The notes beneath the pieces were generated by a model. The model saw nothing but the letters and a program-made list of their open reading frames with translations. It ran no database searches and was not told the DNA's origin. Shown one piece after another: positions 19,867-39,279 of a stretch of DNA of 44,782 nt (the stretch's first letter is position 1; each line of letters opens with the position of its first letter). The stretch comes from Patescibacteria group bacterium. Its GTDB lineage: Bacteria > Patescibacteriota > Minisyncoccia > 2-02-FULL-40-12. Location: assembly GCA_038063995.1 (NCBI GenBank), contig JBBTUA010000006.1:1-44782 (forward strand), in the 5' to 3' direction. The position numbers and the translations under genes are program-made.

Positions 19867-20871
19867 ATGGCACGGAAAATCGGCATAGATCTAGGAACAA
19901 CCAATACGCTTGTTTTTGTTCCGGGAAACGGAATAAGAATCAACGAGCCTTCAGTGGTGGCTATTTCTTTATTTGATAACCGCATCTTGGCCGTGGGAAA
20001 TTTGGCTAAAGAAATGGTCGGTCGGGCGCCAGACACTATTTCCGTAGTCCGGCCCTTAAAAGACGGCGTTATTGCAGATTATAAAGTGACCCAGGCGATG
20101 ATCAGGTATTTTATCAATAAGTCGTTCAATAAATTCAACTTTTTGAAAAAAGAAATTTTGATCTCGGTTCCGGCGGCCATAAATTCAACTGAAAGAAGAG
20201 CGGTGATTGAAGCCGGGATGAACGCAGGCGTCAAAGCGGTTTATCTGGTTAAAGAGCCGGTGCTTGCGGCAATAGGAGCAGGCATTCCGATCAACTCTTC
20301 TTACGGTCATATGGTGGTTAATATAGGCGGCGGCACGACAGAGGTGGCGATAATAAGCCTTGGCGGCATAGTGGCTTCTGCCGGAGTCAGAGTAGCCGGA
20401 AATAAAATAGATCAGGGGATTATTGATTATGTTAAGAAAAAGCACAATCTGGCCATAGGCGAGAGAACAGCGGAACTTATTAAAATAAACATCGGAACAG
20501 CCATAAGGGTTTCCAACGAGGAAACAATATCAATAAGAGGGAGAGATTTAATTACCGGCCTGCCTAAAACAATTGATTTAACTTCAAACGAAGTGAATGA
20601 GGCCATTCAGGAACAGTTAAACGAAATCAGCCAGGTGGTTAAGCGTGTTTTGCAGGAGACTCCGCCGGAGCTCTGCGCCGATATAATCGAGCGGGGGATT
20701 ACGCTTACTGGCGGCGGAGCGCTTTTGAAGAATATGGATGTATTTATCACCCGCGTGACCGGAGTGTCGGCAAAAACTGCCGACGACCCGCTTCTTTGCG
20801 TCGCCAAAGGAACTGGAGTGGTTTTGGAAAACTTAGAAATTTATAAGAAGAATATAATTACTCGAAGGTAG
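19867..20871 (+). CDS. mreB: Rod shape-determining protein MreB
   Basis: IGIDLGTTNT, NEPSVVA, RPLKDGVIAD, NIGGGTTEVA, LTGGGALL. Confidence 0.96.
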   Translation: MARKIGIDLGTTNTLVFVPGNGIRINEPSVVAISLFDNRILAVGNLAKEMVGRAPDTISVVRPLKDGVIADYKVTQAMIRYFINKSFNKFNFLKKEILISVPAAINSTERRAVIEAGMNAGVKAVYLVKEPVLAAIGAGIPINSSYGHMVVNIGGGTTEVAIISLGGIVASAGVRVAGNKIDQGIIDYVKKKHNLAIGERTAELIKINIGTAIRVSNEETISIRGRDLITGLPKTIDLTSNEVNEAIQEQLNEISQVVKRVLQETPPELCADIIERGITLTGGGALLKNMDVFITRVTGVSAKTADDPLLCVAKGTGVVLENLEIYKKNIITRR

Positions 20872-21153
20872 CCGTAAACATACAATCTAGACCTCTCGGG
20901 TATAAATAATTTATTCTCGCCCTTTTCTGCTCAATGCCTTTCAGGAAACGCTCGGCCTCATACATCTTTTATACAAAGCTCAACTCCTGTCTTTAAGAAA
21001 AAACCCTCGCTCCTCGTTCGCCTCGCTACAAAGATTATCTCCTCAATACGGCTCGGCTCACGAGGTTCCTGATAAGGCATTACGCAGCGGGCTCGAAGAA
21101 TAGAAATTATTTATACCCCTGCGGCTCTAATCTAAAGATAAATGTTTGCGGCT
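20870..21153 (-). repeat. Large structured intergenic element, type B copy 1
   Basis: Terminal IR AGCCGTAAACAT/ATGTTTGCGGCT, inner IR GGGTATAAATAATTT/AAATTATTTATACCC, core AAACCCTCGCTCCTCGTTCGCCTCGCTACA shared with 32060 and (reversed) 39141. Confidence 0.85.
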
Positions 21154-21197
21154 GACTGCTTGTAAAAAATTTTGTTCTTCGATTTAATATGAAAAGG

Positions 21198-21301
21198 CCG
21201 CAAGCTTATCTAAAAGATTTTGAATGGGGATTATTTATTTGATGAACAAAGAGAGAAGAAGGAGGCTATGCCCGAGAGGCTTTTTTTCTGAACGCTTGCG
21301 G
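21198..21301 (+). repeat. Degenerate structured element facing away from type B copy 1
   Basis: IR CCGCAAGC/GCTTGCGG; TATGCCCGAGAGGCTTT is the reverse complement of the type B arm AAAGCCTCTCGGGTATA with 1 mismatch. Confidence 0.55.
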
Positions 21302-25714: not shown

Positions 25715-26203
25715 ATGCCCTATCCGTCAAAAAGTAAAAAAGTTGGAGAATTCTATAAGAGAGCATTTAAAGATTTAGTTATAAAACTTTATTGTAAAGA
25801 TAAGTTATCTAGCTTAGAAATTGCGGAAAAGTTTTTAAAAGAAGCTAAAGTTTCACCATCCCCTCGATATATACAACGCATCATTCAATTATTGGGTAAA
25901 TCCCGTAATTTCAGCGAAGCTTTCACCCTTGCTATTAAAAAGGGTCGAAAAAGTTACGATAGCTTAAGAAAACCCATTAAAGCATCTATTTTAAGAAAAG
26001 GAATTGATTTAAGGCAAAGATATTAAATTTTGAAAAGAGATAATTTTAAATGTGTGTTATGCGGGAATACTGCTAAAGAAGTTCGGCTTGAAATTGACCA
26101 TATAACTCCGGTAGTTAATGGCGGCAATAATAATCTATATAACTTAAGAACTTTATGTGTTCTTTGTAATCGTGGTAAAAAATTCAGCGAAAATGAAAAA
26201 TAA
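25715..26203 (+). pseudogene. HNH endonuclease with N-terminal helical domain, interrupted by in-frame TAA at 26024-26026
   Basis: Same frame continues RY*ILKRDNFKCVLCG...LEIDHITPVVNGGNNNLYNLRTLCVLCNRGK to TAA 26201-26203. Confidence 0.85.
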
Positions 26204-27149
26204 ATCGAAAAATACGATTGTCCTCCCCTATCTTGATGATTTTTTATTGCATTTGCAGTCAAACAACTATTCTGACGAAACTATATACAACTACGAACGG
26301 GATCTACTAGTTTTTGAAAACTTCCTTAATGAGTCCCCTATTCCGTTTAATAAGATTAACAAAAGAATCGTCGAATCTTATAAAGCATATTTAGCTTCGA
26401 TTGACCGGGAAACGCCTATTAAAGCAAGTGTCGAAAAAAAACTAGGCAGTTACTCAACAAACAGGTTCTTATCCTCACTGAGGTCATACTTCAGATACCT
26501 TATTAAAATGGACTACCCCTCCCCTATTCCGCCTGATGCCATTACTTTAATTAAAAAAGAAAAAAAAATTCCCAAAGTTCCGGAGTTCCAAGATACAGTG
26601 AAGTTGATAGAGTCCCCTTCGCAATTAGAGAAAAATCAAATTATAGCCAAAAGGAATCGTGCAATCTTAGAAGTCTTTTTTTCCACTGGTATAAGGATTT
26701 CTGAACTGGTGAATTTGAAGTTGAGTCAGATCAACAAAGAAGGGCAAATTTATATTTTAGGCAAAGGCAAAAAAGAAAGATTCGCTTACTTAACGCCAAG
26801 AGCTTTTCGTCATCTGAAAGAATATCTTAAAACCCGTAACGATGAATCAGCATACGTATTTATACCTTATAGTGGCCGAAATAAAGCAATGAAAGATAAG
26901 AAAGTTTCAACTAACTATATCCAGTATAAAATTAAACAATATCGCGAGATACTAGGTATAAATGTGCCTATATCTCCGCATGCTTTAAGAAGAGCCTTTG
27001 CTACATACTTAGCCGAATCAGGGGCAAGTCCAGCGGCTATTCAAATACTGTTAGGCCACGAGTCTTTGGATACAACAACACGCTATGTTCAAATTTCTAG
27101 CCGATACGCAAAAAAAGTTCATGAAAAATTCCATCCGTTAAAGGAGTAA
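26193..27149 (+). CDS. XerC/D-like tyrosine recombinase
   Basis: Catalytic set present: TGIRISE, GKGKKER, HALRR, LLGH, TTRY. ATG 26193 overlaps the end of the HNH frame. Confidence 0.92.
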   Translation: MKNKSKNTIVLPYLDDFLLHLQSNNYSDETIYNYERDLLVFENFLNESPIPFNKINKRIVESYKAYLASIDRETPIKASVEKKLGSYSTNRFLSSLRSYFRYLIKMDYPSPIPPDAITLIKKEKKIPKVPEFQDTVKLIESPSQLEKNQIIAKRNRAILEVFFSTGIRISELVNLKLSQINKEGQIYILGKGKKERFAYLTPRAFRHLKEYLKTRNDESAYVFIPYSGRNKAMKDKKVSTNYIQYKIKQYREILGINVPISPHALRRAFATYLAESGASPAAIQILLGHESLDTTTRYVQISSRYAKKVHEKFHPLKE

Positions 27150-29643: not shown

Positions 29644-31089
29644 TTAAATATTTAAATTTATTTTGTTAATAGCCTTATCCAGCCTTTTAATAACTTCTTC
29701 TTTTGATAAAACTTCTAAAATATCAACTGGATCAGGCGAGGTTTCGCGTCCAGTTAAGGCAACTCTTAAAGGCCAATAAACCGCTCCCCTATCTCCGGCA
29801 AATTCAGTCTTGGCAATCTCGTCTAATTTGATTTTGATATAATCTTTGTCGAAGATATTCCAATCAACCGGTTCAAGCGCTTCTTTTGTTAAATTTAAGG
29901 ACTTTTTAATTGCTTCGGCCGGCGTGTTTTTCCAGTTTAGCAACTCTCTTTTATACTCGGGTTCTTTGAAAAAATAATCAAAATCAGCCGCATCAGAGAG
30001 TTTTTCCATTCTCTCGGTCATCATATGCCTTATTTTTTCCAGATATTCGTCTTTGACTCCGTCTATTTCCAAATTATTTGTGATAAACGGCATAATTGTC
30101 GTTCTGAATTGTTCCGGCGTCAGCTGATGGATGTAATAAGCATTCATCCAATTGAGTTTCTTTATATCAAAAACTGCGGGCGACTTCTGGACATCTTTCA
30201 GATCAAACAAAGCCGATAGTTCTTCAATCGAGTAAATGTCTTCGGGCTTTTCACCTTTGATCTCGATTTTCCCCGGCCTCCAGCCCATGAGAGCCATAAA
30301 ATTGATCATTGCTTCAGGTATGTACCCTTGTTCTTTGTATTCTTTAACTGATTCTGCTCCGTGCCTTTTCGACAACTTAGTTCTGTCCGGTCCGAGAATT
30401 AAAGGCAAATGGGCATATTGAGGCTTTTCTATTTCCAAAGCTTCCTGAATCAAAATTTGTTTAGGGGTGTTAGAAATGTGATCTTCCCCCCTGATAATGT
30501 GAGAAATTTTTGTTTCATAATCGTCTATTACTACGGCGAAATTATAAAGAGGAGTCTCCAGATTTTTGGCTAAGCTCAAATCCCCTATCAGATTTTCTTT
30601 CCATTCGATTGTTCCCCGGATAAGGTCATTAAAATGGATTACCCGAGTAGCATTTTCATCAACCTTTAATCTTATAATTCCTTTTTGGTCAATTTGGGCA
30701 TTTTTATACTTATGTTCGCAAATATGCCTTGGTGCTTCGCGACGAGCCATCTGTTCTTCGCTTTCTTTTTTAAGTTCTTCAACCGTATGATAGCACCAGA
30801 ACGCTTTGCCTTCGTCTAATAACTTTTGGAGGTATTTTTTATACACGCCTATCCGTTCGCTTTGCTTGTAAAATTCATCCCAAATGATCTCTAACCAATT
30901 AAATGAATCTTTGATATCTTCTTCGAATTTGGGATCAGAGCGCTCCAGATCAGTATCCTCGATTCTTAAAATAAAAGTGCCTTTATTTTTTCGAGCGAAA
31001 AGCAAATTAAAAAGCGCCGTTCGAGCTAGACCAATATGAAGCGGCCCAGTGGGAGATGGCGCAATTCTGACTCGGATTTGATTAGACAT
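29644..31089 (-). CDS. gltX: Glutamyl-tRNA synthetase
   Basis: APSPTGPLHIG, LRIEDTD, RGEDHISNT, KLSKR. Confidence 0.97.
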   Translation of the reverse strand: MSNQIRVRIAPSPTGPLHIGLARTALFNLLFARKNKGTFILRIEDTDLERSDPKFEEDIKDSFNWLEIIWDEFYKQSERIGVYKKYLQKLLDEGKAFWCYHTVEELKKESEEQMARREAPRHICEHKYKNAQIDQKGIIRLKVDENATRVIHFNDLIRGTIEWKENLIGDLSLAKNLETPLYNFAVVIDDYETKISHIIRGEDHISNTPKQILIQEALEIEKPQYAHLPLILGPDRTKLSKRHGAESVKEYKEQGYIPEAMINFMALMGWRPGKIEIKGEKPEDIYSIEELSALFDLKDVQKSPAVFDIKKLNWMNAYYIHQLTPEQFRTTIMPFITNNLEIDGVKDEYLEKIRHMMTERMEKLSDAADFDYFFKEPEYKRELLNWKNTPAEAIKKSLNLTKEALEPVDWNIFDKDYIKIKLDEIAKTEFAGDRGAVYWPLRVALTGRETSPDPVDILEVLSKEEVIKRLDKAINKINLNI

Positions 31090-31134
31090 ATATTGTATTC
31101 TAACCTATATTTAACATCGATTCCAACGACGAGT

Positions 31135-31863
31135 ATGAGAATTTCCAGCGGATTTACTAAAATCGGCAAAGAGATCGGCAGGTTCAAAGAAAAGAAGCCT
31201 GATAGCGGCATTCATGGACCGGTGCATGCCTTGGCTAAAGAGATTTCTGAAACATTCGGGGAGCCTAAAAAATTCCCTATGTATCTGGGGATAATAAAAA
31301 ATATCGGGCTTAAAAGGGCTTATGAAATATTCTCAAAAATCAGGCAGTCGAAAAGCATAAAAGATCCGGGAAAATTATTTGTCTATGAATCGCGCTACAA
31401 AATGGAAATCGTAAAAAAACCGGCAGAAATTTTAACCAAAAAATTGGCTGATGTTGACTTGATAACGGCTCAATTGAAAAAGGTTATTTTAAAAATGAAA
31501 AAGATAATGAGAGAAAATAAGGGAATCGGTCTGGCGGCCAACCAAATCGGTTTGAATATGAAGCTTTTTGTTATAGATGAGGAATTGGCCAAAGAATACA
31601 ATGCGCCGGATGTTTATATAAATCCGGAGATTAAGCCTTACCCGCCTGCTGGACGGGCAGGTTCAAAAGACACTGAAGAAATGGAAGAAGGATGTTTAAG
31701 CATTCCGGAAACTTGGCTGAAAATTAAAAGGTCGAAAAAAGTTAAAGTTAAAACCGTAGATGAAGAAGGAAAAAAGCATAAATTCATCGCCAAAGGAATG
31801 CTTGCCCGAGTTCTGCAACACGAATATGACCATCTGCAGGGGGTTTTGATAACGGATAAATAA
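31135..31863 (+). CDS. def: Peptide deformylase with a fused ~89-aa N-terminal domain (deformylase part from ATG 31402)
   Basis: GIGLAANQIG, EGCLS, QHEYDHLQG; no stop between 31135 and 31402. Confidence 0.85.
   Translation: MRISSGFTKIGKEIGRFKEKKPDSGIHGPVHALAKEISETFGEPKKFPMYLGIIKNIGLKRAYEIFSKIRQSKSIKDPGKLFVYESRYKMEIVKKPAEILTKKLADVDLITAQLKKVILKMKKIMRENKGIGLAANQIGLNMKLFVIDEELAKEYNAPDVYINPEIKPYPPAGRAGSKDTEEMEEGCLSIPETWLKIKRSKKVKVKTVDEEGKKHKFIAKGMLARVLQHEYDHLQGVLITDK
31641..31661. mobile_element. 21-bp in-frame palindromic insertion in def (PPAGRAG)
   Basis: CCCGCCTGCTGGACGGGCAGG imperfect hairpin; removal gives INPEIKPYSKDTEEMEEGC. Confidence 0.65.
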
Positions 31864-31866
31864 TAG

Positions 31867-32173
31867 CTCGGACACACCCAATTTCTAAATAATAAAGCCT
31901 CTCGGGTATAGTTGTTTCAGAAACGTTCGGTCTCATACATCTTATATTATAATTATCTTATCTCCTGTTTATCAGAATATGAATAAGAATTCATATAATA
32001 ACTGCGTTCGGTTGAAATGAGTAAATTTATTTACTCATTTCTCCCTCACTTGTTATTATAAACCCTCACTCCTCGTTCGCCTCGCTACATATCTTATTCT
32101 TCTCTTAACGGCTCGGCTCACGAGGTTCTTCAACAACCATACCCTGCGGCTTTATTAGAAATTGGCTATATCC
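31867..32173 (-). repeat. Large structured intergenic element, type B copy 2, with an ~81-bp nested hairpin insert
   Basis: IR CCAATTTCTAA/TTAGAAATTGG; shared core at 32060-32128; extra sequence at 31979-32059 relative to the other copies. Confidence 0.85.
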
Positions 32174-32239
32174 TCCATCAGTCATCTTTCAGATTCCGTC
32201 TTGTCAGAATTTCGCCGGCGAAGCCCGGAGAATATTTAC

Positions 32240-32276
32240 AAAAACGATGAAGCCCGCGAGAAGCGTGGCTTCATCG
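32240..32276 (-). terminator. Intrinsic terminator of the small minus-strand ORF
   Basis: CGATGAAGCC...GGCTTCATCG with an A-run on the left (U-tail on the minus strand). Confidence 0.7.
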
Positions 32277-32289
32277 CGGGCGTTGGTTT

Positions 32290-32505
32290 TTAGCGAAGCA
32301 GCATTGCTCCTGCTAGAGCTAATACGGCGCCGCCAACACGAAAGTTCCAACGAGCAAAGCTTGCACGAGGATGATGAATAGATTCATGCAAGCTTTGCGA
32401 GGTTATGATAAACCCAGCAAGAATTACTGCTAACTCCCACCTTCCGGCAACGACCGGTAAGAGCACGAACAGAGGGAAAATCCATCGGTTGAATATGTGG
32501 TTCAT
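32290..32505 (-). CDS. Small orphan membrane protein
   Basis: 71 aa, hydrophobic segments, AAGGAGGT SD, own terminator. Confidence 0.65.
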   Translation of the reverse strand: MNHIFNRWIFPLFVLLPVVAGRWELAVILAGFIITSQSLHESIHHPRASFARWNFRVGGAVLALAGAMLLR

Positions 32506-32586
32506 TTATGCACCTCCTTTTTCTAATCTATAGTTTATTTTTACTTTTGTCAACGGCGGATTTTGGAGCGAAGTTTTAATATAGTA

Positions 32587-32789
32587 AGCGAAAAGCGGCG
32601 AGCAATATCAATTTTTGAATTGGGAAGTATCTTGCAAATTGCCGGAATCTTTATGAAAATTTGCCGATGACAAATCTACGGGGGAGGTATCCTGATTTGT
32701 CGGCAAATTGAATAAAGTAACGGAGATTCAATTTACAAGAAGGGCTACCCTTATGAAGGAATTGATATTGCTCGCGCAAGGTTTTCGCT
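32587..32789 (+). repeat. Large structured intergenic element, type A copy 1
   Basis: Nested IRs AGCGAAAA/TTTTCGCT, GCGAGCAATATCAATT/AATTGATATTGCTCGC, AATTTGCCGA/TCGGCAAATT, GACAAATC/GATTTGTC. Confidence 0.88.
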
Positions 32790-32797
32790 ACATATAA

Positions 32798-33673
32798 ATG
32801 AAACTTTTATTTTTCGGCACATCAGACTTCTCAAAGCCGGTTTTTGAGGTCTTAAAAAAATGTGATTATTCCCCTATTTTGTGGAATCAGCAGGGTTCTT
32901 TTGACGACTTTAAAAAAATAAATCCCGATATCTGCATTGTCGCCGCTTACGGAAAAATAATTCCGAAAGATTGGCTTGAAATTCCTAGATATGGATTTTT
33001 GAATATCCATCCCTCGCTTCTGCCAAAATACCGCGGGGCCTCCCCTATCCAAACCGCAATTTTAAACGGCGATAAAGAATCCGGTATTACTATAATTTTG
33101 ATGGATGAAAAAATAGACCATGGGCCGATACTCGCTTCGCGAAAATTTTCAATTTTCAACAGCAATTCCGCAACGAGCCGCAAGCGGCTCGGCGGAACCT
33201 TCGACGAGCATTTTAAATTTTCAAAATATAAAGAATTGGAAAAAGAATTGGCAGAACTGGGAGCACAGCTTCTTATTGAAACCTTGCCAAAGTGGATTGC
33301 CGGCGGGATAAAATCAAAAGAGCAAAATCATAATCAGGGAACTTATACTAAAAAATTATCGTGGGAAGATGGTAAAATTGACTGGTCAAAAACTGCGGTA
33401 GAAGTTGAGCGGCAAATCAGAGCTTTGAATCCGGAGCCGGGTACTTGGACCACATGGAACAACAAAGTTTTAAAAATTATTGAGGCCGAATCAATAGAAT
33501 CAAAATTGGCCGGTGAACCTGGCTTGGTGATTAAGGTTGAAAGTGAGGTTTTGGTGAAATGCGGGGTTAATGCCTTGATTCTTAAAAAAGTCCAGCTTGA
33601 AGGCGGGAAACCGCTTTCAATCAAAGATTTCCTAAACGGCCATAGAAATTTCGTCGGTTCCAAATTGACTTAG
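32798..33673 (+). CDS. fmt: Methionyl-tRNA formyltransferase with an in-frame insert
   Basis: FFGTSDF, VAAYG, NIHPSLLPKYRGASPI, DHGPIL, IRALNPEPG. Confidence 0.95.
   Translation: MKLLFFGTSDFSKPVFEVLKKCDYSPILWNQQGSFDDFKKINPDICIVAAYGKIIPKDWLEIPRYGFLNIHPSLLPKYRGASPIQTAILNGDKESGITIILMDEKIDHGPILASRKFSIFNSNSATSRKRLGGTFDEHFKFSKYKELEKELAELGAQLLIETLPKWIAGGIKSKEQNHNQGTYTKKLSWEDGKIDWSKTAVEVERQIRALNPEPGTWTTWNNKVLKIIEAESIESKLAGEPGLVIKVESEVLVKCGVNALILKKVQLEGGKPLSIKDFLNGHRNFVGSKLT
33159..33209 (+). mobile_element. 51-bp in-frame hairpin insertion in fmt, inside an AATTTTC heptamer array
   Basis: ACAGCAATTCCGCAAC-GAGCCGCAAGCGGCTC-GGCGGAACCTTCGACGAGC; arms near-identical to 36622-36669. Confidence 0.88.
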
Positions 33674-33882
33674 CGAAAAGCTTTCCTCGGCATATGTTTT
33701 CGAAAACCGCTCACAAAACCCAGCGAGTTTTGCTCGCTGTACTTGCGACCTCCTAAAGTCAAGACTAGCCCTCGCTCCACCCAGCTAAGCTGGGCTTCGC
33801 TCGGTCTTCATACAATCTTGACTTACCCTGCTAGTCGGTCTCCAGAACTTTTCGAGAAACATATGCCTCGCGCTTTTCGCTA
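33671..33882 (-). repeat. Large structured intergenic element (type C, with A-like ends and B-like modules)
   Basis: IRs TAGCGAAAAGC/GCTTTTCGCTA, GGCATATGTTT/AAACATATGCC, AAGTCAAGA/TCTTGACTT; modules CCCTCGCTCC and GCTCGGTCTTCATACA. First TAG is the fmt stop. Confidence 0.85.
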
Positions 33883-33980
33883 GATTAAGAATCAAAACTC
33901 GGCTGTACCCTTGAGCTCTGATTATTTTGAAACTATACGTGTTTTATATGCCTTTACTTTTCGGTCAAAAAGTATAAAAT

Positions 33981-34178
33981 TAGAAAGCGGCTCGGCATCT
34001 AAATTTCTGAGTCTGGGGAGTCGTCTTAGAAAATAGCCGCTATCTTTATGAAAATTTGCCGAATGATAAATCTATGGCGGAGGTACCCTAATTTATCGGC
34101 AAATTGAATAAAGTGGCGCGCTATTTTCAAGAAGGGGCACCAAAGGAAGAAATTTTGATGCCGAGCGCAAGCTTTCTA
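33981..34178 (+). repeat. Large structured intergenic element, type A copy 2
   Basis: IRs TAGAAAGC/GCTTTCTA and GCTCGGCATC/GATGCCGAGC; ATCTTTATGAAAATTTGCCGA and TCGGCAAATTGAATAAAGT identical to copy 1. Confidence 0.88.
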
Positions 34179-34185
34179 CTTATTC

Positions 34186-38972: not shown

Positions 38973-39032
38973 CTCGGACATACCCAATTTCTAAATAATA
39001 AAGCCTCTCGGGTATAGTTGTTTCAGAAACGT
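38973..39032 (-). repeat. 60-bp left-arm fragment of the type B element
   Basis: 59/60 identical to 31867-31926. Confidence 0.9.
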
Positions 39033-39074
39033 ATAGATACGAAACCCATAAAACAATATCATTTTTTTAAATCT

Positions 39075-39257
39075 AGCTGCCCGTTTGGCGATGCCTTCTC
39101 AGGAACCTCGCGAGCCGAGCCGTAAGTAGAAGATAAACTATGTAGCGAGGCGAACGAGGAGCGAGGGTTTATTCTGATAAACAGGGAACTACCTAATTTA
39201 TTACAAGTTGTATGAGGCCGAGCATTTCCTGAAAGACATTGCCAAAAAAGGGCAGCT
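39075..39257 (+). repeat. Large structured element, type B, inverted relative to the other copies
   Basis: IR AGCTGCCC/GGGCAGCT; TGTAGCGAGGCGAACGAGGAGCGAGGGTTT (39141-39170) is the exact reverse complement of 21001-21030. Confidence 0.87.
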
Positions 39258-39279
39258 GGTGTTGCCAAACGGTGGCGAA

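Follow-up and report, generated by a model that had tools for sequence, protein, structure and literature searches.

Although the genomes of ultra-small Patescibacteria are very dense, many accessory genes are found in them, which raises the question of how such genes are gained and exchanged. One spacer in the window, the whole 44,782-nucleotide stretch of DNA analysed here (contig C6 of genome G000, a 395-kb assembly that is 85% complete), poses this question in compact form: how did a small antisense gene flanked by large hairpin repeats come to lie between def and fmt, and do the hairpins have any part in it? An initial annotation proposed that the paired hairpins delimit a cargo-carrying unit, that is, a route of gene capture without an integron. 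We refer to the hairpin repeats as rods and to the genes between them as cargo. The family concerned, f1, was placed in the Parcubacteria group of the Patescibacteria via the source names of its relatives' proteins. A literature search in a library with few subscription journals returned no description of the rods or of a def-fmt slot. New in what follows are the series of def-fmt alleles, the rule that the linker obeys, the occurrence of the slot without rods across the order, and the finding that the 71-aa protein belongs to a family.

Anatomy of the def-fmt spacer

The def stop codon (TAA, 31861-31863) and the fmt start at 32798 bound a spacer of 934 bp, the parts of which are listed in Table 1. 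The rod-gene-rod cassette described in the initial annotation stood, with its coordinates verified. Rod B, which comes after a TAG at 31864-31866, adopts a single rod fold (-84.8 kcal/mol, z -9.77, 0/100 shuffles) that holds inserted sub-hairpins at about 31977-32062, and rod A, whose outer stem ends at 32789, 8 nt short of the fmt ATG, folds comparably (-85.2 kcal/mol, z -9.05, 0/200 shuffles). The antisense 71-aa ORF with its strong Shine-Dalgarno sequence and its own predicted terminator was likewise borne out; a consensus scan found no terminator at this gene, probably because of the limits that it sets on loop and tail. The 934 bp are a self-contained antisense unit, with a predicted promoter, a Shine-Dalgarno sequence, a 71-codon gene and a predicted terminator.

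Table 1. Features of the def-fmt region, in window coordinates
Feature	Position	Strand	Description and basis
def, peptide deformylase	31036..31863	+	PF01327 on residues 123-275; ORF list
Rod B, left hairpin repeat	31867..32173	-	L form on +, stabler R form on -
Conserved linker, rod to cargo terminator	32174..32226	+	AGATTCCGTC ... TTCGCCGGCGAA palindrome ... GCCC; alignment
Predicted intrinsic terminator of antisense gene	32240..32282	-	hairpin -25.5 kcal/mol, then T5
71-aa ORF, predicted membrane protein	32290..32505	-	conserved His: H3, H40, H44, H45
Shine-Dalgarno AGGAGGTG	32511..32518	-	sequence; 5 nt upstream of 71-aa ORF
Predicted sigma70 promoter TTGACA-17-TAGATT	32525..32553	-	promoter match
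Rod A, right hairpin repeat, R form	32580..32796	+	8-bp outer stem, 32587-32594 with 32782-32789
fmt, methionyl-tRNA formyltransferase	32798..33673	+	PF00551/PF02911
Cargo-free rod pair, fmt-efp junction	33671..34181	.	type C (L form) + type A (R form); no gene within

The assembly of this region was compared with sequencing run X1, possibly the source sample of G000. Logan contigs of this run over 29864-31891 and 32141-32665 show 0 differences, at flank depth; they read across from def into rod B, and from rod B through the cargo to rod A. No RNA data set is listed among the sequencing runs that contain this sequence. Among the joints listed for these assembled contigs, none deletes the insert in the organism of G000. 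The listed joint 32583-32798 has letters identical to the allele of G007, and it therefore belongs to another organism.

Several further observations concern the genes and repeats of the window. The def product has an N-terminal extension of about 120 aa (in frame, 31036-31404) that matches neither Pfam nor NCBIfam, and a homologous segment is present in relatives, in frame wherever checked. Short in-frame palindromes lie within def (31644-31663) and fmt (33142-33218). The sub-hairpin of rod B also stands alone, in contigs C3 and C12 of G000 and in G172, a genome of another family. Further rods are found at the contig end (an R rod, 1-89), between mreB and a glycosyltransferase gene (a pair, 20870-21278) and between dnaB and rplU (a remnant and an R rod, 38973-39264), and many contigs of G000 terminate at rods.

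Rods as polar, strand-specific repeats

Rods are dispersed modular repeats of 200-300 nt, with 160 matches in the DNA examined: G000 in full, 450 kb of G007, portions of five further genomes and a number of metagenome loci. Genome G002 (688 kb), also a member of family f1, was covered completely and has none. A scan of 400 genomes of the class, with two candidates scored per genome, gave no rod in any other family; matches outside family f1 were a sub-hairpin and the terminator. Among viral contigs, five loci match a 19-20-nt pattern only, with no rod surrounding it, and no Rfam family was found on rod A or rod B.

The arrangement of rods is strongly polar. Among neighbouring rods within 1.5 kb of each other, 49/56 are ordered L-then-R, as against 5 R-then-L (four of which enclose a host gene), 1 RR and 1 LL, and directly adjacent pairs are L-then-R, and thus outward-facing, in 26/26 instances. 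This order is kept across up to 1.5 kb of cargo, with the cargo on either strand. The R form is the better folder in 105/106 rods, by a mean of -14.5 kcal/mol as RNA and -5.7 as DNA, and G-U pairs are more numerous on the R strand (725 vs 381). Taken together, the L-then-R order and the stabler R form place the stable form at the 3' end of the module, whichever strand is read. Among 23 type-A rods, 21/53 pairs change on both sides, as expected of covariation, and 97% of cells pair vs 35-50% with slid partners, figures to be read with the caveat that the structure was derived from these same, related sequences.

The tips of the rods carry c(GAA)g triloops, 6 distinct ones on the R strand and 0 on the L strand, together with a single GNRA loop on each strand and no UUCG loop. 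Triloops of the c(GAA)g type are especially stable in DNA. These tips point weakly to single-stranded DNA as the folded species. A K-turn reading of the purine-rich loops was set aside after a by-eye check against the K-turn consensus, to which the loops do not generally conform.

Rods are also anchored at gene ends. In 74/82 rods facing a gene end, the outer end lies at most 45 nt from the stop codon, and that stop is TAG in 44/74 cases vs 81/347 ORFs of G000. Many rods are 75-100% alike, and copies 96-100% identical occur at different sites. The only intragenic rod noticed lies within the glycosyltransferase gene region downstream of mreB (L062:5212-5386, equal to G006:C28 25212-25386).

Exchange of rods and cargo at one site

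Empty sites, for which the initial annotation had suggested looking among relatives, do exist: in G001, G003, L081, L082 (the same as G001 on the tree) and L141, def and fmt meet in an ATGA overlap. The filled alleles of family f1 differ widely. Locus L083 has, in order, a rod A', a terminator homologous to that of the 71-aa gene, a 158-aa DUF5680 gene, its Shine-Dalgarno sequence and promoter, and a second rod A', and is the only case at def-fmt in which the two ends are near-identical (93%). G005 and L093 (which ends before reaching def) have a left rod, a gene of what we call the MTEQ family and a coiled-coil gene, with the right rod absent; G007 has a rod D, the linker, an MTEQ gene, a 69-aa gene and a right-rod stub; and G006 has a left-rod stub, an MTEQ gene and a rod B in R form. 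A lone R rod occupies L080, and a 48-nt remnant L084. Different cargo is thus present, the 158-aa gene of L083 being one example, as the initial annotation had envisaged; however, it does not lie between the same ends, which vary by allele (B/A, A'/A', B/none, D/remnant and remnant/B). Both rod type and cargo are exchanged at this one site.

All 6 aligned filled alleles of family f1 have the -35 flank TGTCAAC.G in common, and empty and filled alleles are interspersed on a def+fmt+efp tree whose support is uneven, with several deep nodes low (32-59). From the common flank and the interspersed alleles, we argue that family f1 has one ancestral def-fmt slot. By eye, no fixed target duplication is consistent across 33 junction sets; edge repeats are ATAAAT at both edges in the window and ATGA(A) in L080 and L083. 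In G006 (L002:690-810), def lacks its 3' end with the HEYDH motif, and a rod remnant stands in its place; the deletion may be real, or the assembly may have gone wrong at the repeat.

Def-fmt slots without rods, and relatives of the antisense gene

The def-fmt junction also receives genes in families that have no rods. None of 54 def-fmt loci outside family f1 has a rod match, and 25 of their spacers are at least 150 nt long. In 13/25 of these long spacers there is an antisense ORF of at least 40 aa with a strong Shine-Dalgarno sequence (loci L008, L010, L013, L014, L017, L021, L023, L024, L026, L089, L288, L301 and L302); the sense strand has 0 such ORFs, and shuffling gives a mean of 0.6 and a maximum of 3. 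A -35 element, GTCAA, is present at the fmt start in 10/13 slot loci vs 2/23 short spacers, and a hairpin often lies at the def stop. The layout recurs in the absence of rods, with ORFs that are mutually unrelated. Slot ORFs outside family f1, many of them predicted membrane proteins, have no blastp match to each other, such matches among slot ORFs being confined to the MTEQ family; a single diverged family was considered for them and rejected, the matches being weak and hydrophobic (phmmer E about 0.01-0.05).

Because rod-free families have the equivalent antisense layout, rods mark the borders of the slot in family f1 and are not required for a gene to reside in it. The slot of family f1 may be convergent with, rather than descended from, that of other families, in which the opening codons of fmt often contain the -35 box. 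Divergent promoters are common in bacteria (PMC10268837), which may be why the def-fmt junction can express an antisense guest.

The antisense gene itself (48% G+C vs 40% in the window) had been described as an orphan. That description has to be given up: a full HMMER search of 1.84 billion representatives returned relatives, with 12 proteins matching at E<=0.001. When a 596-aa repeat protein among them is set aside, 10 short matches can be aligned over their full length and have His residues that do not vary, and these alignments indicate a real, unnamed family of proteins, hydrophobic at both termini in the case of the 71-aa member. It has no Pfam or NCBIfam match, and the ESM Atlas gave leads below 0.9 only; a word-seeded protein search, which matched the 71-aa protein alone, proved misleading in light of the HMMER result. 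The only genomic homolog among 105 genomes of the order lies in G448, a member of family f2, in an accessory-gene cluster with no rod, def or fmt nearby, and none was found in the 400-genome class sample. Flanks similar to those at def-fmt, which the initial annotation had suggested looking for at other loci of this ORF, are not present at this one. The terminator family of the 71-aa gene is more widespread, being found behind other small ORFs in L083 and G020 and as a further copy in G344; G020 and G344 lie outside family f1.

Passengers, mobile ends or RNA elements

The reading that we favour, tentatively, is of an order-wide slot for small genes whose edges, in family f1, carry polar rod pairs that likely act as homology arms and not as capturing ends. 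Three other roles for the rods have to be weighed against it.

Rods might be selfish repeats that spread passively into neutral junctions, which are few in a dense genome and which inserted genes create, and have no role in moving genes; this we consider unlikely but deserving of serious attention. The slot and the 71-aa family do exist without rods, about half of rod pairs are cargo-free (25/49), rod-free inserts are present even in rod-bearing genomes, and the cargo often persists where one of its two rods is gone or survives only as a remnant. Passive spread would not by itself lead one to expect that the L-then-R order is held over long cargo on either strand, or that the linker follows an L-form rod in 15/16 matches, binding the rod to the terminator side of the cargo; where flanks are readable, this linker mostly abuts a terminator-like A-tract and hairpin, again with cargo on either strand. 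Nor would it predict that the same junctions alternate between empty, cargo-free pair and cargo-bearing pair, as junctions other than def-fmt do. Rods are found at 18/43 cargo-bearing junction instances vs 20/370 others (odds ratio 12.6), counts from which the G002 and M082 rows are omitted, whose rows are not independent and in which some of the rod-free rows counted as "cargo" in fact hold core genes that went unrecognised. One module (G000:C3 15233-16063) has the order rod-linker-terminator ... promoter-rod with a perfect TTGACA-17-TATAAT and no ORF of at least 40 aa, and is either decayed cargo or a small RNA.

Alternatively, and in our view doubtfully, the rods would be the ends by which a dedicated enzyme, a single-strand nuclease or a recombinase whose gene lies elsewhere or has been lost, recognises a non-autonomous unit, cutting it and inserting it with its cargo. 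The uniformly outward-facing adjacent pairs, the 3' position of the better-folding R form in the module whichever strand is read, the double-sided changes in rod A, the anchoring near stop codons with its excess of TAG, and the precise empty alleles in several lineages would all fit such a unit. Against it, the two ends are usually of unlike rod types, the slot works without rods, a fixed target duplication is lacking by eye, and no mobilising enzyme tracks the rods, whether RAYT, integrase, GIY-YIG or reverse transcriptase, or by gene-content comparison with rod-free G002.

Y1/RAYT transposases were not found in G000, G001, G003, G004, G005 and G006 (85-99% complete assemblies), and hence in 6/7 rod-bearing genomes; the one in G007 (Y1_Tnp) has no rod nearby, and G002 has two. 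XerC/D-like tyrosine recombinases number one in each of 7/8 genomes, and that of the window scores 74 bits on TIGR02249 (cut-off 265), with XerC/D as its best match. GIY-YIG loci have a rod in 0/20 cases and reverse transcriptase loci in 1/10, and genes of both kinds also occur in G002. As judged from sequence, no transposase or other enzyme candidate stands among 49 G000 proteins under-represented in G002; large serine recombinases in that list have weaker matches in G002 as well.

Two of these gene groups merit separate description. The recombinase of the window (26157-27149) shares 89% identity with its closest counterpart in G001 and G003 and about 31% with those of G007 and G002, that of G007 lying in the same syntenic region. 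Reverse transcriptase genes (L305-L314) are present in 7/8 genomes of the family. Next to several of them are an Avd-like gene and a template-like repeat rich in Asn, and we take these loci to resemble diversity-generating retroelements.

Finally, a role as RNA, in which outward transcripts would carry the R form as an insulator, RNase III site or leader and so spare def and fmt, is quite improbable: G-U pairs do favour the R strand, and RNase III cleaves MITE hairpins, Correia elements among them (PMC10969869), but promoter -10 elements are not enriched at the 5' base of rods (24/110 vs a shuffle mean of 23, with noisily called ends), RNA-type tetraloops are nearly absent, and cargo-free pairs whose rods are 6-30 nt apart leave little space for divergent promoters.

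Comparison with known systems

The rod system is most like an oversized REPIN/BIME doublet or a MITE-flanked composite, and it departs from each of these, as well as from integron cassettes and Ssn/SRM systems, in the features by which they are defined. Integron attC sites consist of R''/R' boxes (RYYYAAC ... GTTRRRY), occur as direct repeats and are served by the integrase IntI. Rods resemble cassettes of this kind in having a strand-specific folded site right after a stop codon and exchangeable small genes; however, they are inverted and not direct repeats, and their cargo has its own promoter and terminator. The boxes were found in 0/106 rods (shuffled mean 1.8), and no IntI was found in the family genomes examined. 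The proposal of gene capture by the rods is only partly supported, as the rods are not needed for a gene in the slot.

The BIME-1 elements of E. coli join two different REP types, inverted, through a conserved linker. The rods have this heterologous inverted pairing, conserved linker and gene-end position in common with them, but are about ten times larger, with nested modular covarying stems and gene cargo between the members.

REPINs, which are REP doublets forming hairpins and are associated with RAYT transposases (Bertels and Rainey 2011, PMC3116915; PMC3390384), are matched by the rods in that both are palindromic extragenic repeats, mostly in inverted doublets, with remnant-like singlets and recent copies at different sites. 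The differences are that rods measure 200-300 nt vs 20-40 for REPs, that the members of a rod pair are usually of unlike types and their spacer may hold genes, that rods end on stop and start codons with no RAYT alongside, and that GTAG precedes the rod stem in only 4/94 outer ends. MITE-flanked composites (IMU, TIME-COMP) likewise place two non-autonomous structured repeats around accessory DNA, and MITEs also act as recombination hot spots (PMC10969869); the flanking rods B and A, in contrast, are not identical, with no fixed target duplication seen and no matching transposase found among the 49 G000 proteins under-represented in G002. In the Ssn/SRM (NTS) system, hairpin repeats are handled as single-stranded DNA in naturally competent bacteria (PMC11893778), a likeness set against the small GIY-YIG genes here, which have no adjoining rod and are present in the rod-free genome.

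A proposed homology-arm exchange at a permissive slot

We return to the reading of polar rod pairs as homology arms at a slot for small genes. Small promoter-ORF-terminator units would pass from one of these bacteria to another, probably by transformation, and would come to rest at def-fmt and other permissive junctions, whether or not rods are present, persisting there, we suggest, because both host genes stay intact. A newly formed rod pair would hold no cargo and would have a stop codon, often TAG, as its anchor. Given the uniform polarity of the pairs, any rod-cargo-rod donor could then align with any rod pair, and host recombination would likely swap the DNA between them, with transformed donor DNA as substrate and the rods as arms. 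Crossovers inside the stems would in turn yield the patchwork of wraps, cores, remnants and orphaned arms.

This arm-exchange reading is supported by the rod-free slot, the rod-free homolog in G448 and the difference in rod types at one site, and further by near-identical rods at different sites, the enrichment at cargo junctions, the triloops, the competence genes (ComEC in 4/5 and DprA in 4/5 genomes tested) and shared inner-junction tracts. These tracts come from a comparison of 51 rod modules, in which identity of at least 85% across a junction is limited to five cargo-free pairs of G000; they measure 119-463 nt, and most stop within the partner rod.

Other results count against the arm-exchange reading. 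None of the 51 modules (0/51) has its cargo-bearing form at a second site at 85% identity or above, so that rod-mediated exchange of cargo is something we infer. The coiled-coil gene, the one cargo family at two rod-bounded sites, is only 49-52% identical between them, and DprA was not found in G000 (85% complete). Moreover, homologous recombination leaves both the first landing of rods on a stop codon and their perfect polarity unexplained. As to the initial proposal that the hairpins delimit a cargo-carrying unit, the polarity of the pairs and their enrichment at cargo junctions speak for it, and the rod-free slots, the want of copied modules and of a matching enzyme against it.

A bolder possibility, to which we give little credence at present, is that the rod pairs of this Parcubacteria family constitute a landing-pad system of giant single-stranded-DNA hairpins seated on core genes at their stop and start codons. 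Whether they served as arms for exchange between any two sites or were acted on by some nuclease, they would allow promoter-ORF-terminator units to be captured and swapped among dozens of sites, as a module with neither integrase nor transposase.

For the biology of these bacteria, the locus offers two handles on the gain of accessory genes, namely a fixed slot between def and fmt, and oriented hairpin pairs limited to one family. Slot and rods together predict crossovers within rods, excision joints and a rod-binding protein.
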